Positions 110-20,065 of a stretch of DNA of 40,978 bases are shown one piece after another. Below the pieces are notes generated by a model, which was not told the DNA's origin, did not search any database, and saw nothing but the letters and a program-made list of their open reading frames with translations. Each line of letters starts with the position of its first letter. Position 1 is the stretch's first letter. The stretch is from an uncultured Planctomycetia bacterium (lineage in GTDB: Bacteria; Planctomycetota; SZUA-567; H5-PLA8), in NCBI GenBank assembly GCA_964429255.1, contig CAYSBP010000005.1, positions 1-40,978 of the forward strand. The letters are read 5' to 3'. A program made the position numbers and the translations under genes.

Positions 110-137
110 AGTCTGGACGATCACGTTGACTTGTCAA
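110..137 (-). promoter_or_regulatory. Candidate sigma70-type promoter for tRNA-Ala (TTGACA, 16-nt spacer, CAGACT)
   Basis: On the minus strand a consensus -35 TTGACA (137-132) is followed after 16 nt by CAGACT (115-110). This sits about 25 nt upstream of the tRNA 5' end. The -10 is weak; only positions 2, 4 and 6 match TATAAT. Confidence 0.3.
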
Positions 138-203
138 GGAAAACTCAATCGAGTCGCTGCCCGTTCCCGGGGTCTCTTGCCGAAAGACGTGTGGGAGGGT
201 AGC

Positions 204-1286: not shown

Positions 1287-1332
1287 CCCCGTTCGCTTGT
1301 ATTCGCTTGCCGGAGCGGATATTTCTTCCAGC

Positions 1333-2235: not shown

Positions 2236-2258
2236 CGGAGCGAGGGGGGGGATCCATC

Positions 2259-2597: not shown

Positions 2598-2598
2598 A

Positions 2599-4254: not shown

Positions 4255-4309
4255 CGAATCCCTCCTCGGGCAGATCACACTGCTGAATGATCATTCGAAC
4301 AAGCCCAGG

Positions 4310-4682: not shown

Positions 4683-4830
4683 TCCTGCAGGAAATCAGCG
4701 TCGGACGGTATACTGGCGGGGCCATGACTCATGGGCCATAGAGATGACGGATTTTTAGGCAGCGCTCTCTGGCAAAAGGCGTCAGGGTTGCGGCGTGCGC
4801 TCAACCATTGAAGAGCGGAGCTGAATTCGC

Positions 4831-5604
4831 GTGACCGAGCCGAGCACCTTGCCTGTGCAGGGGTCCCCACTGCTGATCACGCCGCGTGTGCTGGCAGGCT
4901 TAAGTTTCGTCGCGCTCGCGCAGGCCGCGCTCGTAGCGGCATGCGTCTGGCCCGGGTGGGATCTCTTCACGATCGAGGCACTTCCCGCACGCCTGGCCGC
5001 GGCGGCCTTGAGCCTGGCCCTGCTGTTGGCCCCCGCGTGGAGTTTCGATCCGCGCACGCACGGCGAATCGCCGTGGCTGCGGAGCGGGCGGTATGCCTTC
5101 CTGAGTCTGTGGCAGGCGGCGGCGCTGGGATTCTTCCTGCTGATTTCAGCCCGCGTGACGGTGCTGTCCAGCGGCGCGATCCTGCGTGCGGTGCTGATCC
5201 TGGGGGCCAGCGCTTGGCTGGTGCTGGCCGCCTCACGTTGCTGGCCGCGCGCATACCTTGGGTTGGCGCTGCTCTGGACCGTCGCCCTGCCGATGGGCGC
5301 CTTCATCGTGGCCGAAGTCTTCATCTCGACGCCTGACGGTTCGATGGGTTGGGCGCGCTCGAAAGGTCCTGGTGTCGAAGCGTTCCGAAACACCGTCGAA
5401 TGGGTGCTCCGGTTCAGTCCCGGCACGGCCATCGTGGGCGCGCTGCAGGGCCATCTGCCGGGCGACGCGCCGTGCGGCTGGCGCGAGGCGGGGCTTTTCG
5501 CCGGCGCGTGTGCATTCGCCGGAGGTCTACTGCAGTGGACACGTGCGTGGCGCCTGACGGCCCACACGGAGACTGCAACCCACACAACCATCGCTGGGTT
5601 ATGA
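4831..5604 (+). CDS. Hypothetical polytopic membrane protein
   Basis: The 257-aa product has about 6 hydrophobic segments rich in L/A/W. GC3 is high in this frame. The overlapping antisense ORF 4782-5900 is R/A/S-rich and not protein-like. I recognise no family motif. Confidence 0.6.
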   Translation: MTEPSTLPVQGSPLLITPRVLAGLSFVALAQAALVAACVWPGWDLFTIEALPARLAAAALSLALLLAPAWSFDPRTHGESPWLRSGRYAFLSLWQAAALGFFLLISARVTVLSSGAILRAVLILGASAWLVLAASRCWPRAYLGLALLWTVALPMGAFIVAEVFISTPDGSMGWARSKGPGVEAFRNTVEWVLRFSPGTAIVGALQGHLPGDAPCGWREAGLFAGACAFAGGLLQWTRAWRLTAHTETATHTTIAGL

Positions 5605-5795
5605 CACAAACCTCTTCTCCTGGCTGGACATGCAGGCGCTTCACGAATTGGGGCATGTCGTGGCGGGATGGCTGACCGGAGCGCAGATCCGCGAGGAGTC
5701 CGCTGCGGGATTAGGTCATTGTCTTGTGCGATCTCAGCCTCTACATTGCGCTGGCTGTTCGCGCGGCGTACTTCTCGGTCAGGGTTCTCGACTCG

Positions 5796-7358
5796 ATGCG
5801 CATCCCCTTCGATCTTCTGGCCGCTCTCCTGGTACTGGAGTCGGTGCGTGAATTGCTGCTGCAGCAGCCCAATCTTCAGGACGGCGGGGCCGCCGATCAT
5901 CTACAGACCACGACCCCGCAGGCGCTCATGGCCCTGCTGGCCTTCTGGTTGATCGCCTGGCTGGTCCATGAACTGCTCGCGCGACGCGCCGAATGGAGCA
6001 CGCGCTGGGGGCTCTGGCCCCAGGGTCTGCGCGTCGTGTCCACACCCGGCGGAGTCCTTCACGAGCCGGCGCGCAAGCACCCGCTGGATGTGCACGCCCG
6101 TCGGGCCACCATCGCGCAGTTCGCCATCGTGGGCCTGTATGCGGTCTTCATCTACGGCTATGGTTGGCCCATTAAGACGACGGCGTGGAGTGGCAGTTAC
6201 TTCATCAACGGGCTGCTGGGCCTCGGACCTTTTGCCGTCGCGATGTTGCTGGCGTTGATCCCGAAACACCGCGTCCTGGCGATGGAGACGGGGCGTGGCG
6301 AGGGCGTGCGGCGGTGGCTCTCTTTCGAGTTGCGGCTGACCTTCCCTCCGCTGATCCTGTGGCTGGTGTTGTACGCCTTCCTTGATCTGGCGCAGTTGCT
6401 GGTACCTGAGGCGGCCCTGCACTACGTGATCGGGCAGCCGTGGATGATCGTAATCGGCAGCGGCTTGGTGCTGGCCGGCCTCGCGATGGCGATCATGCCG
6501 TGGATGATGGTCCGGCTGTGGCACGCGCGGCCGATGGCGGACCATGCGGCCCGCGAGCGGTTGACGGGGTTGCTCAAGCGCTCGGGTGTGAAGGCGCATG
6601 CGATCATGGAATGGGGACCACCGGGTACCGGTTTCGCCAATGCATGCGTGCTGGGGCCGTGGGCGCCCTTCCGCTACATCCTGATCAGCCCAGGACTGAT
6701 GCGGCTGCTTTCGCCCGAAGAATGCGAAGCGGTGATCGCGCACGAGATTGGCCACGTGCGGCATGGACACCTGGGGTTGCTGGTCGTCGTTGTGCTGGGG
6801 TTGGCCGCCTGGAGCGATCTGATTCTGCGGGGGCTCGATCGTCTCCAGTATGGCGATCCGGTCACGCAAGGCGTGGTGCTGATGCTGCTGATCGTCGTGT
6901 ACCTGCGTTTGCTCTTCGGTGTGATTTCGCGGCATTGCGAGCGGCAGGCGGATCTGGCGGCCGCGGAACTGCTCGGTACGCCCGTCCCGTTGATCACCGC
7001 ACTGGAGAAGCTGGCACTCCTTTCCGGCGGCACGCGCGAGGTTTACTCCTGGCATCACGACTCTATCGCCAGGCGCGTGGAGCGACTGCAGACGGAGGGT
7101 GCGGACCCCGAGGCCATCCGCCGCTATCACCGGAGCCTGCGGCCGATGCGCATGGGGTTGCTGGGTCTTTCTGCGGTGGCCATCCTGCTGATGCTCAGCT
7201 TGGCGATGACGGAAGGCGAAGCCGCGAAAAATCCGGCCGAAGAAACAGCGCCGGTAACCGTCCAGGAGGAAGCCGCCGAGACCGACGTGTCCGACCGGTC
7301 CGACTCGTCTGACCCGTCCGACCGTCCCTTGCCTCGTGAAGGAGGACTCACCCCATGA
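5796..7358 (+). CDS. Membrane-embedded M48-family zinc metallopeptidase (HtpX/BlaR1/Ste24-like)
   Basis: Multiple N-terminal TM helices are followed by the HExxH motif AVIAHEIGHVRHGH. A downstream ERQADLAAAELLG segment supplies the third ligand Glu. There is a C-terminal TM and an acidic S/D-rich tail. The start is uncertain: TTG 5724 opens the frame and ATG 5796 is the first Met. Confidence 0.8.
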   Translation: MRIPFDLLAALLVLESVRELLLQQPNLQDGGAADHLQTTTPQALMALLAFWLIAWLVHELLARRAEWSTRWGLWPQGLRVVSTPGGVLHEPARKHPLDVHARRATIAQFAIVGLYAVFIYGYGWPIKTTAWSGSYFINGLLGLGPFAVAMLLALIPKHRVLAMETGRGEGVRRWLSFELRLTFPPLILWLVLYAFLDLAQLLVPEAALHYVIGQPWMIVIGSGLVLAGLAMAIMPWMMVRLWHARPMADHAARERLTGLLKRSGVKAHAIMEWGPPGTGFANACVLGPWAPFRYILISPGLMRLLSPEECEAVIAHEIGHVRHGHLGLLVVVVLGLAAWSDLILRGLDRLQYGDPVTQGVVLMLLIVVYLRLLFGVISRHCERQADLAAAELLGTPVPLITALEKLALLSGGTREVYSWHHDSIARRVERLQTEGADPEAIRRYHRSLRPMRMGLLGLSAVAILLMLSLAMTEGEAAKNPAEETAPVTVQEEAAETDVSDRSDSSDPSDRPLPREGGLTP

Positions 7359-7738
7359 AAGGTCTGTGGCCTGTCGCGCTGCTGCTGGTCCTCGTCGCCG
7401 GAGGAAGCGATGCCGCCGAAGAACGGATCCGGGGCATCCTGGAGAAAACCGCCAACCCGGGTGCCAGCGCGCAGATCACCGACGCGCTGAACGACGTGTA
7501 CTATGTGGTCAAGACCGTAGAAAGCGAGAAGGCGTGTGCGCCGCTGATCGGCCAGCGTGTCGTGCTGACGGGAACGGTCGAAGAACGCGTCGATGATCGG
7601 CTGCTCTACCTGACGCTCAAGAAGGCCGAGGTGTACCAGCCCAGGCAACCGGAGACGCCTGCCGACGCGTCGACCTCCACCCCGCTTCCCTCACCTGCGC
7701 CTGTGCCGCCGGCCGACGAAAAGAAGACGGATCCCTGA
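7355..7738 (+). CDS. Small secreted hypothetical protein
   Basis: The signal peptide is MKGLWPVALLLVLVAGGSDAAE. The ATGA overlap with the M48 stop suggests translational coupling. The tail is proline-rich. No family was recognised. Confidence 0.6.
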   Translation: MKGLWPVALLLVLVAGGSDAAEERIRGILEKTANPGASAQITDALNDVYYVVKTVESEKACAPLIGQRVVLTGTVEERVDDRLLYLTLKKAEVYQPRQPETPADASTSTPLPSPAPVPPADEKKTDP

Positions 7739-8476
7739 TCAGGACGCGCTCCCCTGGATCGTTCCGGCGCGGATGTCCAGTTGTTCGCGCGACTGGATGC
7801 GCGAGATCCGGCCGTCCGTGATCCAGATCACCCGGTCGCTGGCCGCGAGCATCTTCATGTCGTGCGTGGCGGTGATCACGGTGACACCCTTTTCCGCATT
7901 CAGTTCTTTGAGCAGGTCGATGATCTCGATGCCGGTGTTCAGGTCCAGGTTTCCCGTCGGTTCGTCGGCCAGCACGATGGCCGGGTCGTTGGCGAGGGCC
8001 CGCGCGATGGCCAGGCGCTGCTTCTGGCCGCCGGAAAGCTGCGGTGGCCGGTGGTGGAGTCGCTGGCCCAGACCGACGCGTTCGAGCAGATGCACCGCCT
8101 TGTCGCGCGCCTCGTCCATGTTCGTCCCGGCGAAGACCATCGGCAGCGAGACGTTCTCCACCGCGTTCATCACCGGGATCAGGTTGAACGTCTGGAAGAT
8201 GTAGCCGATCTTGCGGCGGCGCAGCCAGGCGAGTTCGAAGACGTCCAACTGGACGATATCGACCTCGTCGATATACACCTCGCCCTGCGACGGCCGGTCC
8301 AGCCCGCCGATCATGTTGAAGAAGGTGCTCTTTCCCGAGCCCGACGGGCCCATGATGCTGACGTACTCGCCGGCCATCAGCGTCAGGTCGATCCCGCGCA
8401 GCGCGTGCACCTCCTGGTTGCCCAGGTAGTAGACCTTGCGCAGGTCGTGGACGTGGACGATTTCGCGTCGTGACAC
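7739..8476 (-). CDS. ABC transporter ATP-binding protein, LolD/MacB/FtsE class
   Basis: Walker A is GPSGSGKST, the Q-loop is IFQ, the signature is LSGGQKQRLAIARAL, Walker B is VLADEPTGNLD and the H-loop is ATHD. The GTG start at 8476 has a GGAGG inside the last codons of the upstream FtsX gene. Confidence 0.92.
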   Translation of the reverse strand: MSRREIVHVHDLRKVYYLGNQEVHALRGIDLTLMAGEYVSIMGPSGSGKSTFFNMIGGLDRPSQGEVYIDEVDIVQLDVFELAWLRRRKIGYIFQTFNLIPVMNAVENVSLPMVFAGTNMDEARDKAVHLLERVGLGQRLHHRPPQLSGGQKQRLAIARALANDPAIVLADEPTGNLDLNTGIEIIDLLKELNAEKGVTVITATHDMKMLAASDRVIWITDGRISRIQSREQLDIRAGTIQGSAS

Positions 8477-8479
8477 CGT

Positions 8480-9187
8480 TCAGACCTCCGCGCGCATGGC
8501 GTCCACAGGCCGCATCCGGGCGGCGACATATGCGGGGTAGGCTGCGGCCAGCACGGTGATCATCGTGCCGGCCCCGACCCCCAACGGCAGTCCGCTCAGC
8601 AGCGGCGACACCCACGGGCCCTGCTGGAGCGTCGCGAACCCCAGCGACAGGCTGAGCTGCAGGATCGTGAGCAGATAGCCGATCAGCACGCCCAGCAGAC
8701 TGCTCACCAATCCCAGAAAGACGCTTTCCACCAGGAACATCCGGACGATGAAACGGTCGAGCGCGCCGAGGCATTTCAGCGTGCCGATCTCGCTGACGCG
8801 TTCGGTGACGCTCATCAGCATCGTGTTCGCGATAACGACCACACAGAGGATGCAGGAGAGCGCCATCAGCCACGTCTCGCGGTCCGCCTGCTGACGTTGG
8901 GCCGCTTTGTCATGGCCGAAGACGCCGAGTTTCTGCAGGACCGCACGCACGTGGACGTCGTCGACGGTGGCCAGTCCCGAAAGGATGGTGTTGGATGAGA
9001 ACGCCGAGATCAGGAAGGCCACGACGACGGCGATGCCGACGAAGATCAGCAGGAAGCGCCCGGGGCGATGGCTGATGTTCATCCAGCTCATGCGGATTGT
9101 GATGCCCCACGGCAGCACCGGTTGCCGGTGGCGTATCTCGGCCTTGTCGGCAAAGATCCGCGAAGAGGCCGACATCACGTCCCTCAT
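8480..9187 (-). CDS. Minimal FtsX-family ABC permease (4 TM, ~40-aa periplasmic loop)
   Basis: TM1 is RFLLIFVGIAVVVAFLISAF, followed by a short loop. The FtsX domain then runs ...MLMSVTERVSEIGTLKCLGALDRFIVRMFLVES...AAAYPAYVAARMRPVDAMRAE. ATG 9187 is preceded by a strong AAAGGAGGTGA Shine-Dalgarno. The track start at 9259 lies inside a hairpin loop. Confidence 0.85.
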   Translation of the reverse strand: MRDVMSASSRIFADKAEIRHRQPVLPWGITIRMSWMNISHRPGRFLLIFVGIAVVVAFLISAFSSNTILSGLATVDDVHVRAVLQKLGVFGHDKAAQRQQADRETWLMALSCILCVVVIANTMLMSVTERVSEIGTLKCLGALDRFIVRMFLVESVFLGLVSSLLGVLIGYLLTILQLSLSLGFATLQQGPWVSPLLSGLPLGVGAGTMITVLAAAYPAYVAARMRPVDAMRAEV

Positions 9188-9299: not shown

Positions 9300-11387
9300 T
9301 CAGAACGGCTTGTCCCGCGTGCACTGCGCGATTAACGACAGCGCTACGGCCGCCATGCCGGCCAACCCCAGTCCGCAGGCCAATCCCGCGGCGACCACCG
9401 GGATATACCGTTTCCACCGTTCTTCGCCGAACTTCTTCTGGAAGTAGTAACGCCCCAGCAGCGCGCCGATCAGCATCGACAATCCGCCGTGCAACGGAGC
9501 ACCGGCACCCGTTACCAGTCCGTAAAAGAAGACCACCGGAAGTCCGGCCATCGAAAGCCCGCCGTAAATCAACAGCCCTGCGACACACGAAACGCCGATT
9601 ACGGCGGGCTTCAAGGCCTGCATCAGCAGCGAATGCTCGCCGCTATTGGCCGTGAAGATGATGTACGCCTGGCGCGCCGCCACCGGCCAGACGCGCGCCG
9701 CGTAGGGGAACGAATCCGACGGAATCTCGTTCAGTCGCCAGAAGAACCACCAGAAAAAGAAGCTGCTGACGAAGACGATAAAGAAGCTCAAGAGTTCCGC
9801 CTTGATGATCGAACGGAACGGCGTCCGGGTCAGTTCCATAATGCGGAAGCTCTGCGCCGCCCATCCGCAGTCCATCAGAGGGATCGGCGCGAACCAGATG
9901 TCGACACCCTTGTAGCCGCTGGCGACAAAGACCGTCTCCTTCAAGTACGGCGTCGAGAGGCCCGAACCCGTGAGCCCGAAAAGCCGTGCGGAAATATACG
10001 AGTGCAGCGGCGTCCAGATGAACCCGAAGATCAGGATGATCCATACCGGGAAACCCGGCACCAGCACGTGCGAGACCCAGGTAAAGCCGCTGATACCGAT
10101 GACGAAGAGTGCCACCGCGACCCAGATGGGGAAGTCGCCACGCTCGCGACAGGCCGTCCGCTCGGGCGGCGCGACGGGCGCGCTGAGCGTCCGGACCACC
10201 GCGTTGCCTGTTTGCGCTTCCGCACGGCGCTTGCGGAACGCGCGGATCATGCTGGCGATCCCGATGACCGCCACTGCGCCGGCCAAGCCGATGGAGACGC
10301 TGAGCCAGAAGTCGTAACTGAGCACGAGCTGGTTCACCAGCAACCCGTTGCCCGGCGTCCAGTGCTCGAACATCCCAAAATGCTGCAGGATGGGATTGCC
10401 GAGCACGCTACTCAACAGAATGCCGATGCAGAGGCCCATCACCAGGCTGAAGGGCAGGATCATGCCGGCCACCAGCGCGCCGAGGTCAAAGCTGATCGAA
10501 ATCAGGCTCGCCGGCAGCACGCCTTCGACGTTGGAGGTGAAGTCCACGAACGGAATCGGCAGCAACATGATCGGCTTGGCCATGAAGAGGCCCGTGACGA
10601 TGGGCAGCAGGACGTAGAGGCAGCCGAAGAGGAAGCCCAGCGACGCGCCGACGCTGAAGACGCGCCAGCGCCAGGAGAGCTTGCCGCGTAGTTCACCCTT
10701 CTCGTCGCGCTCGGTCGATTCGGCCAGCGCCGTCGCACCTTCCGCTGCGACAGGGGCGAGAGGGAAGGGGAGTCGCTCAACGTCCGACGTGGCGCGGAAG
10801 AGCAGATAACCGAGCCCAAACCACGCGATCTTGCCCAGCACATAGCCGACGAAGATGAGCGTCAGTGGCGCCAGGAATCCGCGCGAGGCGCTCCACCACC
10901 AGTCCGGATGCGCCAGGTCCCGTGTCTGGATGCCGGGCGACGTCGAGGGCGGCACCACCCAATCCGGAATCTGTTGGGCAATGCCGCTCGTCTGCGGCGA
11001 CTGCAGCAGGTACTGGTTCCAGATCGCGCCGGCGAACGGTCCGCCGGCGAGGGCGATGTGTGCGGCCGCGACAGCGGCAACCGACGAGGCGACATAGAAG
11101 AGAACAAAGATCTCCTGGCGCTTCAGCTTCGAGAAGCTGCGCTTGGCCAACTCGGCAAAAAGGATGATGGTGACCCATTCGGCCGCCGGTCCCAGCGTCT
11201 GCCCCGCGACCAGCCCCAGGTAGATGGCGCCCGGCATCATCACGATGGCGACGAAGAGCGCGCCCAGCACGGTTCGTGACGAGAAGCCGTCCACAAAAGG
11301 ACCGCTCTCCAGCACGTCGTTGGCCCCGGGCGCGGGAGCCATCGACACCGGCTGGCGACCGCTCGGGTCGTGAAGGGTTTCAGCCAT
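9300..11387 (-). CDS. OPT (oligopeptide transporter)-superfamily-like polytopic membrane protein
   Basis: The 695-aa product has about 14-16 TM segments. The N-terminal pattern is SRTVLGALFVAIVMMPGAIYLGLVAGQTLGPAAEW. There is an ERLPFPLAPVAAEGATAL motif (compare OPT L-x-FPSG-x-A) and a C-terminal RYIPVVAAGLACGLGLAG. The start overlaps the upstream stop by 8 nt (ATGGCTGA). Confidence 0.6.
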   Translation of the reverse strand: MAETLHDPSGRQPVSMAPAPGANDVLESGPFVDGFSSRTVLGALFVAIVMMPGAIYLGLVAGQTLGPAAEWVTIILFAELAKRSFSKLKRQEIFVLFYVASSVAAVAAAHIALAGGPFAGAIWNQYLLQSPQTSGIAQQIPDWVVPPSTSPGIQTRDLAHPDWWWSASRGFLAPLTLIFVGYVLGKIAWFGLGYLLFRATSDVERLPFPLAPVAAEGATALAESTERDEKGELRGKLSWRWRVFSVGASLGFLFGCLYVLLPIVTGLFMAKPIMLLPIPFVDFTSNVEGVLPASLISISFDLGALVAGMILPFSLVMGLCIGILLSSVLGNPILQHFGMFEHWTPGNGLLVNQLVLSYDFWLSVSIGLAGAVAVIGIASMIRAFRKRRAEAQTGNAVVRTLSAPVAPPERTACRERGDFPIWVAVALFVIGISGFTWVSHVLVPGFPVWIILIFGFIWTPLHSYISARLFGLTGSGLSTPYLKETVFVASGYKGVDIWFAPIPLMDCGWAAQSFRIMELTRTPFRSIIKAELLSFFIVFVSSFFFWWFFWRLNEIPSDSFPYAARVWPVAARQAYIIFTANSGEHSLLMQALKPAVIGVSCVAGLLIYGGLSMAGLPVVFFYGLVTGAGAPLHGGLSMLIGALLGRYYFQKKFGEERWKRYIPVVAAGLACGLGLAGMAAVALSLIAQCTRDKPF

Positions 11388-14300
11388 GCTTCTCTCCCGT
11401 CACGAGCGTTGCCTCCACCGGTCCAAAGAGCGCACGGCCCTTCTCGATGTATTCCTGATGCGCCGTGACCGGCAGGACGCGCCACATCAACAGTTGCTTG
11501 CGCAACGCATGGATGAAGCGCGGCGTCAGGCGGCGCCAGTTCTGCTGGTCGCCGCTGTAGCGCGTGGCGGTCAAGTGGCACTGACACACGCCCCGCTCCG
11601 CGCGATACACGATGCGCAGTTGTGCGTCGTGGCTGATGCCCAGATCGAACGGCGCGAGCCACGCACGCATCGACAGAACCGGGATCGGCTTGCCGTCTTC
11701 GCCCGTTTCGATGCCGGCGGCCAGATGCTCCACCGCCAGGTCGCCCACCGTGAGGCCTTGCAGCCCGTCAAGGTATTCGTGCATGTAGGCCTGGAGGCCA
11801 AGAACCGCCGAAGGCGTTGCGACGAACGGTAGATACAACGCCACCGTGTCGGTCGCGAACTGCTCGGCGCCGCCGGCCCCCTGCTTGCGGGATTCCGGGA
11901 TCGCCGCGCGGAACGCCTGATGCGCCGGATAAAGCGTCGAAACCACCACGATGAACATGCTGACCAGCGTGACGAAGACGGTCGTACCCGCGGAATAGTT
12001 CAGCGAAAGGCCCGACAGCGCACCGGTCACCAGCAGCACCTTGGAAATGAGCTGGCCCATCAGGTAGCCCAGCGACGCGCCCAGGATCGCATAGACGGAG
12101 GATTCGGCCAGGAAGAGCGAGGCCACATTGCCCGGCGAGAGCCCGACCGAGTTGTAGACGAAAATCTCGCGGCGCCGCTCGTAGACCGATCCGAGCATGG
12201 TGCTCAATACCATGATGAAACCCAACAGCAGCGGAATGGCGATCTGTCCGGTCAGACTGACCGAACTGGTATCGAGCGCCGCGTAGAGCGTCGTCGACTG
12301 ACCGTCGCAGGCGAGAATCGTCAGGTTCGAACGGCGAACGTAGCCTTCGGCCTCCGCGCCAGGATCCATGTTTTTGCCTGCGCGCACGGCAACGCTGCGC
12401 AGACGCGCGCCCAGCCGCATGCCGAAACGCAACGGGATAACAGCCACCCGCGCGGCGAGGTGGTGTTCGTACTTCTCCAGCGTATCGGGCTGCTCGGCAG
12501 CCGCCTTCTGGGCCTTCTGCCGTTCCTGCCGCACGAAGTCCACCGGCGTGATCGGCTCGCCATCCAGATCCCGGAAGGCGTCGAGTTTCTCCTGACTGAG
12601 CATTCCCAACAGCGGGACGCGCTGGCCGAAGAGCACCACGTCCTTGCCGACGTCCGCGGGACCGTAGCCCAGTTCTTTCGCCGCGTGCTCCGGAAGAAGA
12701 ATGCCCGGTTCGTCCTCGCTCTTGAACCAACGGCCCGCGATCAGCGTCCGGTCGATCCCGGTGACCGCAGGCTCCGTGTGCTCGAGGCAGAGCAGCGAGA
12801 CGACCGTGTAGCGGCGCGTGGTCGTTCCATCCGTCTGTCCGTTTCCGTCCGCGGGCGGCGCCAAGTCGATCTGCGAAAGCTGGCCGCTGGCGTCCGAAAA
12901 GAACCAGGCACGCCCTGCGACGGCGGAATGCAGTTCGGAGGCGGTCGCCTCTCCATCCGCCGCGAAGCCACGTTTCAATGAAAGATAGAGCGGCTCCGGC
13001 AGCTGATTCCAGTGCCGGTCGCGCGCCAGCAATCCTTTATAGGCCGGGTGCCCTTCACGGTGCGACAACTTGGAGATGCTGACGACCGGCACGATCGAGG
13101 TAAACGAGAGCAGCGTGAAGGTGACCAGCACGATCGTGAGCGCGGTCAGAAAGCCGCGTTGCGGACGGCGGCGGATGTTGGCGATGCCCAGATCCACGGC
13201 GCGTACCGCAATGCCGCCCGTGTTGGCGGATTCTTCATGCACGCCCGACACCGCCTGCTTCTGTTCGCGCAACACCGTGTCAAACCGTCCGGCGACCAAA
13301 AGGCCCACCGTGGCGGCCAGCGCCAGAATGATGAACGCCAGCAACACGATCAGCGGCGTCATGGTAAATCGAAAGGCCGGGTGAATGAGGGCCAGCACGG
13401 CAAAACTGCCGCCAAAGATGGCCACCATCCAGAAGATGCGCCGGCGAATGGTGCCTGAAGCGAAGACGAGCCGCTCCATGCAGTAGGCGAACGGCAGCAG
13501 CAGGGCGAGATAGAAGAGCACGCCCTGCACGAGGTTATTCGTCGTCGCCAGCAACTCGGTGTAGGCGCGGTTCTCCAGCGCCCAACCCTTCTCGCTCGCC
13601 GCACGATACGAACCGTAGTCGCAGGCATCGAGTGCCTTGCGCGCCTCATCGAGGTGTTTGGCCGCCTCCTCGCGCGTCTCCTTCACACGCGGGTTGTTGA
13701 CGCCGTTACGCTCCAGTTTTTCGAAGCGAGACTGATCCAGCCGCCACATGTCGCCGGCGCCCTGGAGCACCATCGACGGGATCCGCGCCAGTTCGTTCAG
13801 TGCAAAACCCTTGCCGATGGGATCTTCGAGCGTGTTGTTGAGCAGTACGAGGCGTTTCTCGCGGAAGCCCAGGCCCAGCGTGACGCGCACGCGCAGCAAG
13901 GGGTCGGCCCAAACCGTACAACAGGTCTCGTCGGTGTCCCATACCGGTTCGTCGGCGGTGCTCTGTCCGAATTGAAAGGGCGGGCTCTGCGTCGCCGCAT
14001 TCAGGATCTGCACGTCGGTGATCGGCAGGTAGCCGCGCGGGTCCGTGAGGCCGAAAAGCGTGATCGCCCGCGACGGGAAGCAGACCAGATTTCGGCGTTG
14101 CTCCGCCCCGGAAATGGGCGCCTGCCAGGGGTACTCGCCCGGCCGCGCCATATCGAGCGCGTAGAGCAGTGAACCGTCGCGCTCGATCTGCGCCGCACCG
14201 CCGCCGTTGAACCGCGTAACGGCGATGAACTCGCCCATGGCGCGTTCGTTGGCCTGAATGAAACGCTCGGTCGCCATGCCGTACGCTTCGAGCGCGCAGT

Positions 14301-16095
14301 GCGCAAACTCCCAACGCCCCGGATACTGGATCAGCCCATCGAAGCTAAACGTTCCCTTCTCGTCCGTCTGCGTCCCCGGGATGCCGCGCGTGCCGACCAT
14401 CTGTTTGTCGCGGCGGCGCAGCTTCATGAAGACGTTGGCCTCCGCCAGCGGCTGGTTCGGCGTGAAGTCACGGTGCTGATCGAGCCAGATCGCGCGCCCC
14501 TGAAGACGACCCAGGTAGTCCGGCAAGCCCGAGCTGACGTACGGTCCCTTCCAGAACGCCAGCGCCAGGAGCATATCCGTAAGACCGGCACGACGACCCG
14601 GCACGGCCAGAACCTGTTTCCCCAGCAGTGAGAAGTCCACCGCTTCAAAACGGTCGTCCGGCGTATCGACATGCTGGCGATCGTCATCGATGGTTGCCAA
14701 CGTAACGGCCGGATAGCCGGCCAACGCGGGCAGTTCGCTCCCAAATGCGATCCGGAACGGAAAGTACGTCCACCAGCCGCGCCCCTGCGTCAGGTTGATG
14801 CAGTCGACGAACGAAGCCAGGGCCTCGGCCTCACGCCGCTTGGTATCCTCCTCTTTGCTGAAGGCCGTCAGGTACTCCGACAGCTTGAGGCCCAGGTCGC
14901 GGAACTTCGGCCGAAGGTGATATTCGTATTCATCGCGAAAGTGGCCCTGACAGAAGAGCCCCAGTCGCTCGGAATGGCTGGACAAGTCCAGTCCGACGAA
15001 AAGCCCGGGCTTGCCCATTCGCGCAAGCGGCGAGTCCGGTTCCTTCGTCCAGTTGCTCGCAAGGCCATCGTGCAGTCGCCGTACGAAGGCCGTCATGCCG
15101 GCAAGCGCCTGACCGTGACCGCCCGTGAAAAGCAGGTAGATGGGCCGTTCGGGCTTTTCCCGCAACGCGGAAAAGAAGCGCGCGAGTTCGAGAAGGACCG
15201 CGGCGCCACAGGCCTGCTCGGCGGCTGGCGCCAGCGTTGGCACGACGCTGATCCCGTCGTAGTACGCATGAACGATCAACGGCGCGCGGTCGGTGTCGTT
15301 CGCGTCCCGGGCCGGCTGGCCGGGACAGACGCGGACGAGCAGATTCGAAGCCTCAACGCGTTCCCACTCCATCTCGCAACGAACCGTCACCTCGGCCGCC
15401 GGTCGCTCCAGCAGACCATCCAGCACCGGCAGGTCCTGTTCAGCCACATAGAAACGCGGGATGTCGGCCGGCACGGAAAGGAACTTTTGGCGCGCAGACG
15501 TCCCTGTCGCGCGCGGATTGGCACGAAAGAGAACCGCTTGGCCGCCGAATTCGGCCACACCCAGCCACTCGGCGTCCGAATTCCAGTCCATCACGGCGAT
15601 GGATCCGGATATCTTCTTTCCGTACAGATCGGACTCCCTGCCCCGTCCCAGGTCAACCAGCAACCCGCGAAGTCCTTCCGGACCGGTCTGGCTGGTTCGC
15701 GCCAGATTCGGCCAGAGCGGGTGGAGCGTCAACCGGACGGCGCCGTCCGCCGACAACAGGACCGCCGAACGCACACGCGGAACGGTCACCTGGAACGTCT
15801 GAACGTCGATATCATGGATTCCGAATGCCTGCAGTTCGCTCTGCAGATGGCTGGCCGCTTCCGCTGCGCCGTAACCGCTCAAACGCGAGGGCGCGGCACC
15901 GAGCTTCCGGACGGTCTCACGCACACGACCCATGTCGATGTCGGCACTCGTACCGGAGGGGCCGATCGTCGGAACCGGAACCACCAGTTTGGTTTCATGT
16001 GGCGCGCCGACACCGGCGGCCCAATAGACCGTCAACGCGATGGCCAGCATCGCGCCGACGAGCCAGAGGAAGCCTTTTGCCAAACCGGAAAGCAT
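11380..16095 (-). CDS. Giant (1571-aa) fusion of an M28/PA-like ectodomain, 3 TM helices, a MacB/FtsX-type permease and an unknown cytoplasmic C-terminal domain
   Basis: The true start is ATG 16095 (MLSGLAKGFLWLVG..., AGGAG upstream). Residues 9-28 form a TM anchor. Residues ~75-490 form an M28 fold with a PA insert: LLVDLGRG...GKKISGSIAVMD, IVHAYYDG, GAAVLLELARFF, YLLFTGGHGQALAG, QHVDTPDDRFEAVD. Residues ~858-936 contain three TM helices. Residues 965-1395 form the FtsX module: GIANIRRRPQRGFLTALTIVLVTF, a MacB_PCD-like GRWFKSEDEPGILLPEHAAKELG, then VYERRREIFVYNSVGLSPGNVASLFLAES...TLYPAHQAFR. Residues 1400-1571 are not recognisable. Confidence 0.8.
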   Translation of the reverse strand: MLSGLAKGFLWLVGAMLAIALTVYWAAGVGAPHETKLVVPVPTIGPSGTSADIDMGRVRETVRKLGAAPSRLSGYGAAEAASHLQSELQAFGIHDIDVQTFQVTVPRVRSAVLLSADGAVRLTLHPLWPNLARTSQTGPEGLRGLLVDLGRGRESDLYGKKISGSIAVMDWNSDAEWLGVAEFGGQAVLFRANPRATGTSARQKFLSVPADIPRFYVAEQDLPVLDGLLERPAAEVTVRCEMEWERVEASNLLVRVCPGQPARDANDTDRAPLIVHAYYDGISVVPTLAPAAEQACGAAVLLELARFFSALREKPERPIYLLFTGGHGQALAGMTAFVRRLHDGLASNWTKEPDSPLARMGKPGLFVGLDLSSHSERLGLFCQGHFRDEYEYHLRPKFRDLGLKLSEYLTAFSKEEDTKRREAEALASFVDCINLTQGRGWWTYFPFRIAFGSELPALAGYPAVTLATIDDDRQHVDTPDDRFEAVDFSLLGKQVLAVPGRRAGLTDMLLALAFWKGPYVSSGLPDYLGRLQGRAIWLDQHRDFTPNQPLAEANVFMKLRRRDKQMVGTRGIPGTQTDEKGTFSFDGLIQYPGRWEFAHCALEAYGMATERFIQANERAMGEFIAVTRFNGGGAAQIERDGSLLYALDMARPGEYPWQAPISGAEQRRNLVCFPSRAITLFGLTDPRGYLPITDVQILNAATQSPPFQFGQSTADEPVWDTDETCCTVWADPLLRVRVTLGLGFREKRLVLLNNTLEDPIGKGFALNELARIPSMVLQGAGDMWRLDQSRFEKLERNGVNNPRVKETREEAAKHLDEARKALDACDYGSYRAASEKGWALENRAYTELLATTNNLVQGVLFYLALLLPFAYCMERLVFASGTIRRRIFWMVAIFGGSFAVLALIHPAFRFTMTPLIVLLAFIILALAATVGLLVAGRFDTVLREQKQAVSGVHEESANTGGIAVRAVDLGIANIRRRPQRGFLTALTIVLVTFTLLSFTSIVPVVSISKLSHREGHPAYKGLLARDRHWNQLPEPLYLSLKRGFAADGEATASELHSAVAGRAWFFSDASGQLSQIDLAPPADGNGQTDGTTTRRYTVVSLLCLEHTEPAVTGIDRTLIAGRWFKSEDEPGILLPEHAAKELGYGPADVGKDVVLFGQRVPLLGMLSQEKLDAFRDLDGEPITPVDFVRQERQKAQKAAAEQPDTLEKYEHHLAARVAVIPLRFGMRLGARLRSVAVRAGKNMDPGAEAEGYVRRSNLTILACDGQSTTLYAALDTSSVSLTGQIAIPLLLGFIMVLSTMLGSVYERRREIFVYNSVGLSPGNVASLFLAESSVYAILGASLGYLMGQLISKVLLVTGALSGLSLNYSAGTTVFVTLVSMFIVVVSTLYPAHQAFRAAIPESRKQGAGGAEQFATDTVALYLPFVATPSAVLGLQAYMHEYLDGLQGLTVGDLAVEHLAAGIETGEDGKPIPVLSMRAWLAPFDLGISHDAQLRIVYRAERGVCQCHLTATRYSGDQQNWRRLTPRFIHALRKQLLMWRVLPVTAHQEYIEKGRALFGPVEATLVTGEKHG

Positions 16096-16175: not shown

Positions 16176-18155
16176 TCACCCCCAGAAGTGGTAGACGGTC
16201 TTGCTGCAGATCGCGCCGTAGATGCCGAAGATCGCACCGACGGTGAATTCCCCCAGCACCACGCCCACCACACAGGGAATCGCACGCCGATAAGCCGCGA
16301 CCCCGCCGTAGCGCGTGATCAGCAGCTTGATGAGCCAGCCGAGGAAGATGCAGAACCAGATCTTCCACATCGACCAGGAGGAGGCCGTGGCGTAGCCGAC
16401 GGGATGCAAGAGCCACCACGTGAAACTCATGCGCAGTCCGCCCAGCAGCAAGGCGAAAGCCATTCCGACGAAGAGCGCGATGGTCGAGCCTATTGCGGCG
16501 CTACTCGGCCGCGCCATCGGTTCCGCAAGACGATTCCAGCCTTCGCTGGCAAACAAACCGGCCACCTTGCCCGCGTGGCCGTGGACATAGCAGACGTGCA
16601 GCATGGCCCAGAAGGCCGCGATCGAGCCGATCACGATCGCCACGATCATCGCGTACATCATGGCTCGCGAACGGGTCCTGGTAAGCTGCGCCAGCTTGAA
16701 GCCTTCCATGTCATGCGCGGAGAAGTGCGCCCGGTAGGCCCGGTTAAACCAGGCGAAATAGCCGAACGCCGCCACGTTCTCTTCGCCCAGCGCACGCGAA
16801 CCGACTGCGTTCTGCATCAGCACGCCTGGTCCCATTCCATGGAGGTCGTGTGCCGGCGGCCCCAACTCCGCGCGCATTCGCGCGATGGCGATGGCATATA
16901 TGAAGAAGATCAGGAAGAAGATGAACATCAAACCCCATGAGGCGTGCTTCGTCACCCATTGGCCGTTCTCCATGACCTGGGTCTGGCCGATCCGCGTGCC
17001 CATGAACATCAGCAGTCCGCCGAAGATCAGCAGCAGGATGAAGGTGGTTCGATAGCGGAGCGGTTCCTGGCTGTCATCCGCGCCGCCGGGACGGCCGAAA
17101 ACCGTGCGAAAGACCGCCTTCAGGTGCCGCCGCGAAAGCCAGAGCGCCAGCAGCCCCAGCGCAAGGTATCCGCCCGCCGCCTGTTCACTCGTATAGGGAA
17201 AACCGGGAAGATCGCTGACCCCGATCACCGACGTCAGCACGTTTTGAGCAAGAAAGAAGAGGTAGAAGAACCAGCAGCTAAAGGCCAGGTCGGTCGGCAG
17301 GAAGAACGCCAACCCGATCACAAAGGGAAACAGATTGATGGTCGTGCCGGCAATCGAATTCCAGGGCCGCTCGACCAGGTACTCGCGAAAGCTGAACGCA
17401 TCGACGATCGGAATCTTCGGTACGTTCGGATAGAAATGATTGAGGTTGTTCAGAATGTCGATGACCGCGACGGTGCCGAATCCGATCCAGAAGAGCCGGT
17501 TCTTCAGCAGCCCGGAGAGCCCCGTGGAGATGGTCAGCGGAATCTGGATGATCGGGAAACTGAGCCGCTCCTGCTCCGTCCACGGCCGACGGAAGAGGAT
17601 GTTGATGCAGAGCAGCGCGCCGGTGAGCACAAAGAGGAAGGAGCACCAGAATCCGAGCGGCTTCAACCAGGCCGAGATGAACTTCCATTGGTACAGCGAA
17701 CTGTTACCGACCTCGAAGGCCCGCGCCGCGTCCTTATCCTGCAGTAGCGCCCACCCCGGCACGTGCGGCAGGATCAGTTCCTCCCAGCGGTTGCTCGCGT
17801 TGGCTGCGTGCACCGGGTACGAGATCATCGGGACGAGGATCTGCAGCATGTCATGGCTGCAGAATGTGCCCGCGATCGAGAGCATCATGTAGATCGTGAG
17901 CATCTCGGCCGCCGTGAGTGCCTTGGCGGGCAGGTAACGCTGCACCAGCAGGTTGAGGAGCGCGATCACAAAGACCACGACGGTGACGTGATAAAAGAGC
18001 GAGATGGCGGTGGAGTGACTCGAGTACCAGATGACTTCGGAGAGGACCACCCACCAAGCCAGGAGCGGCATCAGTCCGCACGCGATGCAGACGGACCGGA
18101 GGGTCACGCCCCCCATACGCTCTTCGCCTGCGGGCTGAGGCATTTCCCCCCACAT
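16176..18155 (-). CDS. Polytopic membrane protein, distant paralog of the OPT-like protein at 9300-11387
   Basis: The ~655-aa product has many TM segments. It shares with 9300-11387 the ERL(S/P)FP motif (TEQERLSFPIIQIP) and a C-terminal R-Y...Y/W-R/K-R-x-IP-x-V-x-G pattern (ITRYGGVAAYRRAIPCVVGVVLGE). It is the first gene of the operon. ATG 18143 is an alternative start with better Shine-Dalgarno spacing. Confidence 0.65.
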   Translation of the reverse strand: MWGEMPQPAGEERMGGVTLRSVCIACGLMPLLAWWVVLSEVIWYSSHSTAISLFYHVTVVVFVIALLNLLVQRYLPAKALTAAEMLTIYMMLSIAGTFCSHDMLQILVPMISYPVHAANASNRWEELILPHVPGWALLQDKDAARAFEVGNSSLYQWKFISAWLKPLGFWCSFLFVLTGALLCINILFRRPWTEQERLSFPIIQIPLTISTGLSGLLKNRLFWIGFGTVAVIDILNNLNHFYPNVPKIPIVDAFSFREYLVERPWNSIAGTTINLFPFVIGLAFFLPTDLAFSCWFFYLFFLAQNVLTSVIGVSDLPGFPYTSEQAAGGYLALGLLALWLSRRHLKAVFRTVFGRPGGADDSQEPLRYRTTFILLLIFGGLLMFMGTRIGQTQVMENGQWVTKHASWGLMFIFFLIFFIYAIAIARMRAELGPPAHDLHGMGPGVLMQNAVGSRALGEENVAAFGYFAWFNRAYRAHFSAHDMEGFKLAQLTRTRSRAMMYAMIVAIVIGSIAAFWAMLHVCYVHGHAGKVAGLFASEGWNRLAEPMARPSSAAIGSTIALFVGMAFALLLGGLRMSFTWWLLHPVGYATASSWSMWKIWFCIFLGWLIKLLITRYGGVAAYRRAIPCVVGVVLGEFTVGAIFGIYGAICSKTVYHFWG

Positions 18156-18470: not shown

Positions 18471-19487
18471 TTGAGCAGGACCCCATCTCGGCAGAAAGTC
18501 CGTCCGTCACCGGGTCGGATCAACCCGGGCTACGCGCGGCGCGTGATTGCGGCGGAGGCGCACGCGGTCGCGGATCTTCGGCATGCGATTGACGCCTCGT
18601 TTATCCAGGCTGCGGAGCTGATCCTTGACCGCGGGCGCCAGGGGGTCGGACGGCTGGTGACGACCGGGGTGGGCAAGGCGGGTCTGATCGCCCAGAAGGT
18701 CTGCGCCACGTTCGCCTCGACGGGCACGCCGGCGTTCTTCATGCATCCGACCGAGGCGAGACACGGCGATCTGGGCATGTTGACGTCGCGCGACGTGGTG
18801 CTGGCTTTTTCGAATTCGGGCGAATCCGACGAGCTCTCCCACATTCTTCCCGCGATCCGGAAGATGCGGGTGCCGTTGATCGCGATGACGGGCCGGCCGA
18901 ACTCCACGCTGGGCCGTGCATCCGACTGCGTTCTCGACATCGGGCGCATCGAGGAGCCCTGCCCGTTGCGGATGGCGCCGAGCGCTTCGACGACGGCCAT
19001 GCTGGCGCTGGGCGACGCGCTGGCGCTGAGCGTCCTGAAGGCGCGCCGCTTCACGGCCCAGGACTATGCGCGGCTCCATCCCGGCGGCGCGCTGGGGCGC
19101 AAGCTGATGAAGGCGCGCGACGTGATGCGCACCGGCGCGCGACTGGCGCTGGCCCGGTCGGACGCGACCGTAGGCGAAGCGCTCTTACGCATGTCCAGGG
19201 CGCGTGGCGGAGCGGTTGTGATCGTTGATGCACGCGCGAAGCTTCTGGGCGTCTTTACCGACGGTGATTTCCGGCGCCTGATGATGCGCGATCCGGGGCA
19301 GTTCCACGCGTCGGTGGGTACGTTCATGACGTCGCCATGCAAGTTCATCCAGGACGACACGCTGGTGGCTGAAGCGCAGGCGTTGATGGCCGAGAAGCAC
19401 ATTAACGCGCTTCCCGTGGTGAAGTCGGACGGCCGTGTGGTCGGACTGCTCGACATCCAGGACCTGGTGGGGTTCCCCGTATTGTGA
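18471..19487 (+). CDS. kdsD: Arabinose-5-phosphate isomerase (SIS domain plus two CBS domains), KdsD/KpsF
   Basis: The SIS motif is GVGKAGLIAQKVCATFASTGTPAFFMHPTEARHGDLGM, with ...SNSGESDEL and MAPSASTTAMLALGDAL. A tandem CBS pair at the C-terminus ends ...INALPVVKSDGRVVGLLDIQDL. Confidence 0.9.
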   Translation: MSRTPSRQKVRPSPGRINPGYARRVIAAEAHAVADLRHAIDASFIQAAELILDRGRQGVGRLVTTGVGKAGLIAQKVCATFASTGTPAFFMHPTEARHGDLGMLTSRDVVLAFSNSGESDELSHILPAIRKMRVPLIAMTGRPNSTLGRASDCVLDIGRIEEPCPLRMAPSASTTAMLALGDALALSVLKARRFTAQDYARLHPGGALGRKLMKARDVMRTGARLALARSDATVGEALLRMSRARGGAVVIVDARAKLLGVFTDGDFRRLMMRDPGQFHASVGTFMTSPCKFIQDDTLVAEAQALMAEKHINALPVVKSDGRVVGLLDIQDLVGFPVL

Positions 19488-20065
19488 GCCCAAGAGCCGA
19501 AATCCGTGCCGGTGGACGTGGCTGGCCCGCCCGTGAAGCCTACGCGGCCATCCGACTCGTCCTGTTTGACGTCGACGGCGTTCTGACGGATGGTGGCATC
19601 TACCTGGATGCCCGCGGGGCCGAGACCAAGCGTTTCGACGTGCGTGACGGCTCGGGAATGGCCTTTCTCCGGCATGCCGGCCTGGAGATGGCCATTCTGA
19701 GTGGCCGGTCCAGCGCGGCGACGGATCGGCGGGCTGCGGACCTACACATACCGAAGACCCGCGTCTGGCAGGGCGCCCGACGTAAAGGTCCCGTCTTCGC
19801 TGAAGTTCTGAAGACCTGTGGCGTCCGTAGAGAGGAAGTCGCTTTCATTGGAGACGACATCGTGGATTTGCCGGTTCTTGAGCAGGCGGGAATTTCTGCC
19901 TGTCCCGGCGATGCCCATTCGGCGGCCATGGCGGCCAGCCACCTGATTTGCGCGGCATCCGGAGGCCGCGGCGCTGTCCGGCAGTTCTGCGAACACCTGA
20001 TCAAGCGTCGCGGGACGGGTGAGTGGGAACGGACGATCCGCAGGTACCTGGGCCAGAAGGAATGA
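19484..20065 (+). CDS. kdsC: KDO 8-phosphate phosphatase (HAD superfamily), KdsC
   Basis: HAD motif I is LVLFDVDGVLTDGGIY, followed by FDVRDGSGM, then ILSGRSS, then AFIGDDIVDLPV. GTGA start/stop overlap with kdsD. Confidence 0.85.
   Translation: MSPRAEIRAGGRGWPAREAYAAIRLVLFDVDGVLTDGGIYLDARGAETKRFDVRDGSGMAFLRHAGLEMAILSGRSSAATDRRAADLHIPKTRVWQGARRKGPVFAEVLKTCGVRREEVAFIGDDIVDLPVLEQAGISACPGDAHSAAMAASHLICAASGGRGAVRQFCEHLIKRRGTGEWERTIRRYLGQKE

Follow-up and report, generated by a model that had tools for sequence, protein, structure and literature searches.

The stretch of DNA considered here, which we refer to as the window, comprises 40,978 nucleotides (nt) of contig CAYSBP010000005.1 from an uncultured Planctomycetia bacterium, and our subject is a large gene on its minus strand at 11380..16095. 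The product of 1571 amino acids (aa) joins in one chain an M28 aminopeptidase-like domain with a PA insert, three extra transmembrane (TM) helices, a permease module of the MacB/FtsX type and a cytoplasmic tail. The gene order along the minus strand is a DUF6785+DUF6784 gene, the large gene, an OPT-like gene, a short FtsX gene and a gene for an ATP-binding cassette (ABC) ATPase. Our best reading of the large gene is that it encodes the large permease subunit of an uncharacterized type VII (MacB/FtsX-class) ABC system.

The first-pass annotation, which was made from the sequence alone, had assigned a 1571-aa product to 11380-16095, and the open reading frame (ORF), its ATG and the presence of a near-identical 1571-aa protein in an independent assembly (P0001, 99%) all agree with it; the sequence strings it quoted were all found in the translation. 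The frame stays open upstream as far as a GTG at 16419. The ATG at 16095 is likely the true start based on the fact that the upstream gene ends at 16176, that a GGAG precedes the ATG by about 10 nt, and that ortholog N-termini align from residue 1. The parts of the gene are listed below with the evidence for each, including structures predicted by AlphaFold2 (AF2) and their predicted local distance difference test scores (pLDDT).

11380..16095, minus: gene for the 1571-aa M28/PA-3TM-FtsX-tail permease, stop codon at 11380-11382 (ORF)
16015..16071, minus: TM1, an N-terminal signal-anchor helix, aa 9-27 (hydropathy; AF2 helix 2-30)
14596..15948, minus: M28 aminopeptidase-like domain with PA insert, aa ~50-500, periplasmic (Pfam, profile against the PDB, Foldseek)
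14665..15264, minus: remodeled metal/catalytic site, with Y278, D280, E293, H327, G328, D370 and D477 (column counts in 107 orthologs, motifs in distant members, hidden Markov model (HMM) alignments)
13816..14523, minus: two beta-rich, sandwich-like periplasmic domains, aa ~525-760, the first holding TQTDEKGTFSFDGL (AF2, pLDDT mostly >85)
13534..13800, minus: helical stalk, aa ~766-854 (AF2 helices 775-796, 802-823 and 827-879)
13294..13533, minus: three extra TM helices, aa 855-934 (hydropathy, AF2, invariant columns)
11908..13293, minus: complete MacB/FtsX-type permease module (Pfam FtsX, partial NCBIfam matches, profile, Foldseek)
11383..11907, minus: cytoplasmic C-terminal domain, aa 1397-1571 (AF2, pLDDT ~85-95 for aa ~1417-1557)

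Two AF2 models were used, one of aa 1-880, built with 57 orthologs, and a second covering aa 850-1571. The first had a mean pLDDT of 91.5 and a predicted template-modeling score (pTM) of 0.90. In searches of the PDB with Foldseek the leading matches of the ectodomain were the PA-containing M28 aminopeptidases (2ek8, E 2.7e-22, followed by PaAP and BSAP), with further matches to the transferrin receptor and glutamate carboxypeptidase II (GCPII). The family profile gave the same picture (2ek8, 1.4e-19; BSAP, 1.2e-16), the alignment spanning both the PA insert and the M28 core. The Pfam Peptidase_M28 match is confined to aa 270-341, or profile positions 12-79 of 193, at 26.0 bits (cut-off 21.3), and the Pfam PA domain gave sub-threshold scores only, in the orthologs P0115 and P0108. 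Both sequence profile and structure thus place the ectodomain in the M28 fold and Pfam family PF04389 (MEROPS M28, clan MH), and the predicted model confirms the M28+PA aminopeptidase fold. The enzymes it resembles most (Aneurinibacillus AM-1 2ek8, Bacillus subtilis BSAP/YwaD 6hc6, and Pseudomonas aeruginosa PaAP 8acg; fold matches at E 1e-19 to 1e-22, profile matches at 1e-17 to 1e-19) share the M28 core with an inserted PA domain. Unlike the protein in the window, they are soluble and secreted and have a canonical His/Asp/Glu/Asp/His di-zinc site with a catalytic Glu; here the corresponding residues are Tyr/Glu/Gly/Asp/Asp, a His occupies the catalytic position, and both ends of the domain are tethered to the membrane.

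To define this site, equivalences were taken from HMM alignments to 2ek8, BSAP, AAP and Nicalin together with motif logic, and are given in AAP numbering; conservation was counted by column over 107 orthologs with identities down to 30%. The co-catalytic zinc ligands of M28 peptidases are His, Asp, Glu, Asp and His, which in AAP are H97, D117, E152, D179 and H256. The equivalent residues of the large protein are as follows.

AAP His97, zinc ligand: Y278 (98/107; His in 3)
AAP Asp99, retained Asp: D280 (107/107)
AAP Asp117, bridging ligand: E293 (102/107; Asp in 3), in a loop one residue shorter, so that the equivalence hinges on gap placement
AAP Glu151, general base: H327 (107/107)
AAP Glu152, zinc ligand: G328 (95/107)
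AAP Asp179, zinc ligand: D370 (107/107), aligned with the LD of Nicalin
AAP His256, zinc ligand: D477 (107/107), the family DTPxD aligning with HTPED of BSAP and TPNDT of 2ek8

Only the second Asp of the five ligands is kept as such, the Asp to Glu change at the bridging position being conservative, and the invariant His327 stands in place of the general-base Glu of the M28 'EE' motif. The ectodomain should therefore be filed as a non-canonical M28 homolog, which has the fold and the Pfam family membership but neither of the chemical hallmarks of M28 peptidases. That the canonical zinc-ligand set is lost had been seen in the first-pass annotation, and is borne out by the alignments to 2ek8, BSAP and AAP, which show Y278, E293, H327 and G328 in place. 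The domain had also been called eroded, and hence inactive or re-purposed. The loss of the canonical site stands, but erosion does not describe it well, as the positions hold other, invariant or near-invariant residues. The His of QHVDTPDD, which had been taken for a retained ligand, is H475, and this column is variable (Tyr in 37, Leu in 22, Phe in 13, Arg in 12 and His in 11 of the 107); we rejected it as the last His ligand, the residue aligned with the His of the BSAP HTPED being D477.

Since residues at the ligand-equivalent positions are invariant or nearly so over the 107 orthologs, the M28 center has not decayed but has been rebuilt into a different Tyr/Glu/His/Asp/Asp constellation that is strictly conserved and, judging from the alignments, under strict purifying selection, as expected of a re-tooled functional site. 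The same site motifs are kept in distant members at 30-35% identity. The rebuilt site has mostly oxygen ligands, with one His, at the general-base position. Consistent with the invariant His327, the AAP variant 2anp, which has His at 151 ('AYAAHEVGLRG'), matches the family profile about 50-fold better than does the wild type (1.9e-7 vs. 1e-5). The AAP E151H enzyme reportedly keeps low activity, and DppA of B. subtilis naturally has a His at the general-base position. The rebuilt site may still hydrolyze a substrate, may bind a harder metal, or may serve for ligand binding only.

These features need not mean catalysis. The M28/PA part could be a purely non-catalytic receptor or gatekeeper, in the manner of Nicalin, nicastrin or the transferrin receptor, that recognizes a protein or peptide client or selects it sterically, or it could be a scaffold for a membrane complex with the OPT-like and DUF6785 proteins; ATP-driven motion of the FtsX module would open and close it, with no hydrolysis taking place. 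After all, none of the canonical His, Glu and His ligands is retained, nor is the catalytic Glu, and among PDB sequences the M28 core alone matches the non-catalytic Nicalin best (E 1e-9, the alignment running through the LD370 strand), with nicastrin matched at marginal E-values (0.02-0.16). Moreover, the domain is tethered to a multi-TM assembly, as are Nicalin, in the BOS complex, and nicastrin, in gamma-secretase, both of which have an M28-like ectodomain with an altered metal site. Those two proteins differ in being eukaryotic, in having a single C-terminal TM helix, in their partners (TMEM147 or APH-1), in having no ABC component and in the residues at the ligand positions; with topology, partners and site residues all different, the large protein shows similarity to the Nicalin/nicastrin type without belonging to it. 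Two observations fit a receptor poorly: H327, D280, D370 and D477 are each present in 107/107 orthologs and kept at 30% identity, which is seldom the case in non-catalytic M28 homologs, and a His at the general-base position is compatible with catalysis, given the 2anp match and the E151H and DppA examples above. We consider a purely non-catalytic role possible but on the whole doubtful.

The topology of the protein follows from hydropathy and the AF2 models. Hydropathy gave eight TM segments in a 1+3+1+3 pattern (9-27; 855-877, 887-905 and 916-934; 987-1005; 1285-1303, 1324-1342 and 1373-1391), and the AF2 helices match them. The stalk consists of three long helices, the last of which (827-879) continues directly into TM2 in the model. 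Invariant residues in the extra TM helices are F861, Y862, P868, E874 and R875. Based on the positive-inside loops, namely RRR at 883-885 and the basic elbow motif IANIRRRPQRGFLT ahead of the first FtsX TM helix, the N-terminus is predicted to lie inside, the ectodomain of ~830 aa outside, with three TM helices leading back in, followed by an FtsX core of ~280 aa outside and the tail inside. This topology, with three TM helices ahead of the FtsX module, and the domain order are those proposed in the first-pass annotation. A CarboxypepD_reg-like stretch, which it had placed after the M28 domain, fared less well: this protein gave no Pfam match there, the only trace among six representative orthologs being one sub-threshold match (E 0.052), and AF2 predicts a beta-sandwich. 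We have dropped the CarboxypepD_reg name for the first beta domain, which we describe as a beta-sandwich only.

The C-terminal half belongs to the MacB/FtsX superfamily. Pfam reported FtsX (PF02687) at aa 1288-1396, with 42.2 bits (cut-off 25.5), as the sole FtsX stretch of the protein, and Pfam MacB_PCD (PF12704) scored above its cut-off in the orthologs P0115 and P0118. The AF2 model of aa 850-1571 had a pLDDT of 84.1, and Foldseek matched this half to MacB (5lil, E 5.5e-12), LolCDE, HrtBA, YtrEF and YbbAP, and the periplasmic core to the MacB periplasmic domain (3ftj) as well as to 5c59 and 5f9q. The family profile matched MacB at 7.7e-13. The module is laid out as a linker with the elbow motif (935-986), a TM helix (987-1005), a MacB-like periplasmic core of ~280 aa (1006-1284) and three TM helices (1285-1396). 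After TM2 of the module there is a coupling-helix motif, ERRREIFVYNSVGLSP, and the profile aligns ERrrEIfvynsvGLsP with ERTKEIGVRMAIGAR of MacB. Pfam, Foldseek and hydropathy therefore support the earlier description of a complete MacB-like FtsX module with a periplasmic domain of ~280 aa.

With a four-TM FtsX domain, a large extracytoplasmic domain, a coupling helix and, in the same operon, an ATPase gene of the LolD/MacB/FtsE class, the protein has the features expected of a type VII permease. It is not an equivalog of MacB, LolC/E, FtsX or ADOP, since its scores lie far below the NCBIfam equivalog or subfamily cut-offs (ADOP, 42 vs. 622 bits; MacB, 26 vs. 966; LolC, 25 vs. 473; FtsX, 20 vs. 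250). MacB and LolCDE gave the best matches for aa ~950-1400, and share with it the four-TM FtsX fold, the Porter/Sabre-like core and the coupling helix. In contrast to them, the large protein has ~950 residues added N-terminally and ~175 C-terminally, its partner FtsX has no periplasmic domain, and the operon in the window holds no gene for an adaptor of the MacA/TolC type.

For the tail, AF2 predicts a confident alpha+beta fold (beta-alpha-beta4-alpha2) at aa ~1417-1557, with block pLDDT of ~85-95. No relative was found in Pfam or among PDB sequences, even at E<=10, and in profile searches the homologs of the tail were attached to FtsX in the large-protein family or were fragments at contig ends; we conclude that the tail is specific to this family. 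Its conserved motifs are LPF, W..PFDLG.S, SGD..W.R and RKQ.L.WR. Foldseek similarity to the Bet v 1/START and KA1 folds (E 0.02-0.06) was too weak for either identity to be assigned. The first-pass annotation had recognized no motif in the tail apart from a CQCH pair; the former agrees with the lack of a Pfam match, but the pair is not conserved, the consensus being YQYH, and with its cysteines not conserved we rejected it as a metal motif.

The fusion of the two halves is genuine, and it is how the family normally occurs. Among 5.8 billion proteins searched there were 147 matches, 120 of which were listed; ~105 of those listed are full-length proteins of 1450-1700 aa, which are 30-78% identical to the query across 95-100% of its length. 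An HMMER search with the ectodomain alone gave 616 clusters (50% identity) at E<=1e-30, the best 150 of which are mostly 1450-1800 aa long. When one genome was scanned for each GTDB species, relatives turned up in at least 494 of these species genomes, spread over about ten phyla; the loci listed come from Planctomycetota, Hydrogenedentota, Sumerlaeota, Lentisphaerales, Omnitrophota, Armatimonadota, Latescibacterota, Gemmatimonadota, Caldisericota and others. By tblastn the N- and C-terminal halves lie head to tail in the same gene in all of the 80+ loci retrieved.

The possibility that the halves are normally separate genes joined by a sequencing frameshift, which the first-pass annotation had itself raised, is therefore rejected, as the halves are contiguous throughout the family. 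A related proposal takes the N-terminal four-TM unit for the degenerate first repeat of a duplicated FtsX permease of the BceB/YbbP type. The unit does have an FtsX-like topology (a TM helix, a large ectodomain and three TM helices), the protein has a partial match to TIGR03434, the 'ADOP duplicated permease', and for the artefact there is one genome with the gene in two pieces. On the other side, the halves are in one frame in all of the 80+ loci and in >100 database proteins, hhalign of aa 845-945 against aa 1275-1405 gave a probability of 0.5%, the TM2-TM3 loop has only ~9 residues and thus no room for a coupling helix, and the ADOP match is limited to the genuine FtsX module (aa 1119-1411). 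With the hhalign result and a single Pfam FtsX stretch, a duplication of the BceB/YbbP type found no support either, and we regard an artefact or a degenerate repeat as extremely improbable.

The genome with the divided gene encodes P0100 (1207 aa) and P0272 (277 aa) on the same 95,999-nt contig, with the M28 part apart from FtsX and the tail; the gene may truly be split there, or be a pseudogene, or owe its division to a frameshift in sequencing, and it is the one exception to the fusion that we found. At the other extreme are giant relatives with added N-terminal modules before the M28-like domain, P0116 (2335 aa), P0182 (2451 aa) and P0252 (3053 aa), and the locus L088. LysM is present in P0116 and P0182 (E 4.5e-16 in P0182), and Big_5 in P0252.

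Full-text literature searches returned no paper describing this architecture, the family, DUF6785 or DUF6784. A 2018 review of MacB-family topologies (PMC5985334) covers the MacB, FtsX, LolCE, YbbP and BceB arrangements, and the word 'peptidase' does not occur in it. The first-pass statement that the architecture is undescribed thus holds for the literature. The architecture is not rare: the family is abundant, and its members carry automatic database names such as 'M28 family peptidase' and 'FtsX-like permease family protein'.

The neighboring genes, which the first-pass annotation overlooked, are the main clue to function. Those of the operon, all on the minus strand, are the following.

16176..18155, minus: upstream gene for a polytopic DUF6785+DUF6784 protein, 659 aa (Pfam 1.7e-139 and 9.7e-28)
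9300..11387, minus: downstream gene for an OPT-like polytopic permease, 695 aa (Pfam OPT matches of orthologs)
8480..9187, minus: short FtsX permease, the ORF extending to 9259 (Pfam FtsX 2.2e-18)
7739..8476, minus: ABC ATPase of the LolD/MacB/YbbA/FtsE class (Pfam ABC_tran 1.8e-34)

The large gene and the OPT-like gene share 8 nt, in which the stop of the first overlaps the ATG of the second (ATGGCTGA); this implies that the two genes are translationally coupled. Two of five orthologs of the OPT-like protein match Pfam OPT (PF03169; best E 4.9e-12), and NCBI lists orthologs as 'peptide transporter' or 'OPT/YSL family transporter'. Direct BLASTP showed no significant similarity between the polytopic products of the two genes on either side of the large gene; by hhalign the DUF6785 family matched the OPT-like family at E 7e-5 over 359 columns, with a probability of 62%. 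An ERL(P/S)FP motif is common to both proteins. Judged by sequence they look like very distant paralogs, and the distant profile-profile similarity together with the common motif would place DUF6785 in the OPT superfamily.

The short FtsX has no large periplasmic domain, its outer loop being only ~45 aa. Its ORF opens with an odd acidic stretch, METDDDDYDNDHDDD, and a strong Shine-Dalgarno sequence, AAAGGAGGTGA, precedes a Met 24 codons on (M25, nt 9187). Based on this Shine-Dalgarno sequence and on the length of the resulting product, 235 aa, which is close to the 227-233 aa of its orthologs, the annotated start is probably too far upstream, and M25 is the probable start. Between the stop of the short FtsX gene and the start of the ATPase gene lie 3 nt. 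The motifs of the ATPase are intact (Walker A GPSGSGKS, signature LSGGQ, Walker B IVLADE and H-loop TH), and its NCBIfam scores (LolD 1.9e-68, MacB 4.8e-67) place it nearest to LolD, MacB, YbbA and FtsE, all below the equivalog cut-offs.

Neighbors were counted in related loci with enough flanking DNA (52 downstream, 61 upstream and 43 on both sides). The OPT-like gene is present in 40 of the 52, the short FtsX together with the ATPase in 16 of the 52, and the DUF6785 gene in 30 of the 61 with enough upstream sequence. In nine distant loci (L059, L030, L039, L046, L050, L067, L070, L075 and L086), whose carriers are mostly of the Armatimonadota type with one from Latescibacterota, a PqqD-family gene and a gene for a ~311-aa protein lie between the OPT-like gene and the short FtsX gene. 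The PqqD gene belongs to PF05402 (E 6.7e-10), which is RiPP-recognition-element-like (RiPP, ribosomally synthesized and post-translationally modified peptide), and the ~311-aa protein is basic, contains Cys and is unassigned to a family (L059:16681-18062). Both genes are absent from the window and its whole clade.

Beyond the ATPase gene, the minus-strand ORFs at 5901-7130 and 4782-5900 (409 and 372 aa) were rejected as operon members: neither has a match in Pfam or NCBIfam, and none of the related loci has a counterpart. On the plus strand, a gene whose start resembles a signal peptide (MKGLWPVALLLVLVAGG...) seems to converge on the end of the ATPase gene, at ~7100-7740. The surroundings (126-4278 and 18471-22854) hold genes for a MoxR-type AAA ATPase, a HisF-like, a Porin_O_P-like and a KpsF/GutQ-like SIS+CBS protein, and a 943-aa protein with a weak LptD_N match; these look like ordinary diderm housekeeping genes with no obvious link to the operon.

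Turning to function, we tentatively propose, at somewhat short of even confidence, that the large protein is an ATP-regulated peptide-binding or peptide-trimming module that acts with the OPT-like permeases. By analogy with known type VII systems (PMC5985334), its FtsX module would dimerize with the short FtsX, whose gene is the second one downstream, or with a further copy of itself in loci that lack this gene, and would bind two copies of the ATPase; LolC and LolE set a precedent for such a pairing of two unlike FtsX subunits. The effect of binding and hydrolyzing ATP on the cytoplasmic side would then be passed on via the stalk helices and move the periplasmic domains, a mechanotransmission like that of FtsEX, LolCDE, MacB and YbbAP. 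Known type VII systems have separate periplasmic effectors (EnvC/amidases, PcsB, TesA, LolA and MacA), whereas here the effector would be the M28/PA domain, fused into the permease instead of being recruited as a partner. A peptide that has a free N-terminus and is located in the periplasm or close to the membrane is the most likely substrate, an expectation based on three independent features: the fold of an aminopeptidase, the permeases of the OPT superfamily, of which one is translationally coupled, and the PqqD-type protein of one clade. The strict conservation of the rebuilt site suggests that it is functional; it would bind the peptide and would probably process it as well, His327 acting as general base on a hard-metal center, after which the OPT-like permeases would carry the peptide, or what is made from it, through the membrane.

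The closest precedent is YbbAP-TesA, a type VII ABC transporter complexed with a periplasmic hydrolase (PMC12646458). It shares with the system proposed here a permease of the MacB/FtsX class, a separate LolD-like ATPase and mechanotransmission that offers substrate to a periplasmic partner of hydrolase fold, and YbbP (9ge7) was matched in Foldseek. It differs in that TesA, an SGNH esterase, is separate and soluble and YbbP is a duplicated 10-TM permease, whereas here the M28/PA domain is fused before a single FtsX module, the partner FtsX is separate and short, and OPT-like permeases are co-encoded.

FtsEX (with EnvC/AmiA-B, PcsB, CwlO or RipC) is likewise comparable, in that FtsX and an ATPase control an extracytoplasmic hydrolase conformationally, and 8tzk and 8i6o were among the Foldseek matches. 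In FtsEX, a small FtsX periplasmic domain binds a separate coiled-coil activator or hydrolase, and there is no M28 domain, extra TM helices, cytoplasmic tail or OPT partner. The likeness raises the possibility of a cell-wall machine of the FtsEX type, in which the M28-like domain would trim or bind peptidoglycan stem peptides under ATP control and the OPT-like permeases would import the murein peptides set free, so that they can be recycled. Peptidoglycan hydrolases are what FtsEX-type systems classically govern (PMC7668044 and PMC10694151); LysM lies directly N-terminal to the M28-like domain in P0116 and P0182, and a SPOR-domain gene is found downstream in L059. LysM is limited to a few giant variants, though, and the ATPase falls under the FtsE equivalog cut-off (202 vs. 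264.85 bits). No division or cell-wall genes lie beside the operon in the window or in loci L001-L007, and M28 enzymes are not known as peptidoglycan hydrolases. We therefore think a dedicated cell-wall machine unlikely.

The PqqD insertion could instead point to RiPP-like maturation and export, with a logic resembling that of ABC transporters that contain a peptidase, in which a cytoplasmic PqqD-type protein hands over a precursor peptide, the M28-like domain trims an N-terminal leader and the OPT-like or ABC components export the product. Aminopeptidase-type leader trimming does occur in some RiPPs, and the PqqD and ~311-aa genes recur in nine loci. These loci are distant, however, and the window and its clade lack PqqD; no conserved genes for precursor peptides or modification enzymes were found nearby in the loci examined; and type VII ABC systems do not move cytoplasmic substrates, while characterized OPT proteins import. 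Such a pathway is, in our judgment, very unlikely.

A number of observations weigh against the peptide module that we favor, from its partners to its chemistry. The 695-aa OPT-like protein of the window itself has no Pfam match, even at E<=10. About two thirds of the loci lack the ATPase and short FtsX near the gene, and 5 of the 43 loci with both flanks have no partner gene at all. Type VII ABC systems are not known to work with secondary transporters, and the literature searches described above yielded no precedent for the architecture. LysM in two extended relatives hints at peptidoglycan and not free peptides. With three of the five canonical zinc ligands gone, ordinary M28 chemistry is excluded, and Nicalin, as the best PDB match of the core, favors a role in binding only. 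Lastly, the clustering of Y278, E293, H327, D370 and D477 in space is deduced from homology, and the equivalence of E293 hinges on the placement of a one-residue gap.

Beyond the peptide-binding or peptide-trimming module, a more ambitious proposal, which we regard as improbable, is that the family represents a new class of envelope machine: a type VII mechanotransducer whose built-in, re-metallated M28/PA domain captures or trims periplasmic, possibly murein-derived, peptides and which is physically coupled to OPT-superfamily secondary permeases. If this were true, it would be the first ABC 'force transmitter' to gate or feed a transporter driven by protons, as well as a bacterial equivalent of the Nicalin/nicastrin principle.

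What the locus represents in general terms is an abundant, multi-phylum and uncharacterized type VII ABC system with a fused, re-tooled effector of hydrolase fold and OPT-type partners, the proteins of which are already in the databases. FtsEX, LolCDE, MacAB, YbbAP and BceAB each run a distinct envelope process, and another broadly distributed member would add a new one, and this in phyla with almost no cultured members (Planctomycetota, Armatimonadota, Latescibacterota, Hydrogenedentota, Omnitrophota, Gemmatimonadota and others). Identifying the partner is usually hard for FtsX-type systems; here the fusion makes it trivial, so that the hypothesis is directly testable. The conserved Tyr/Glu/His/Asp/Asp in place of a di-zinc site is a natural experiment in metallopeptidase re-tooling, and the family would assign functions to DUF6785, DUF6784 and a large bacterial OPT subfamily.

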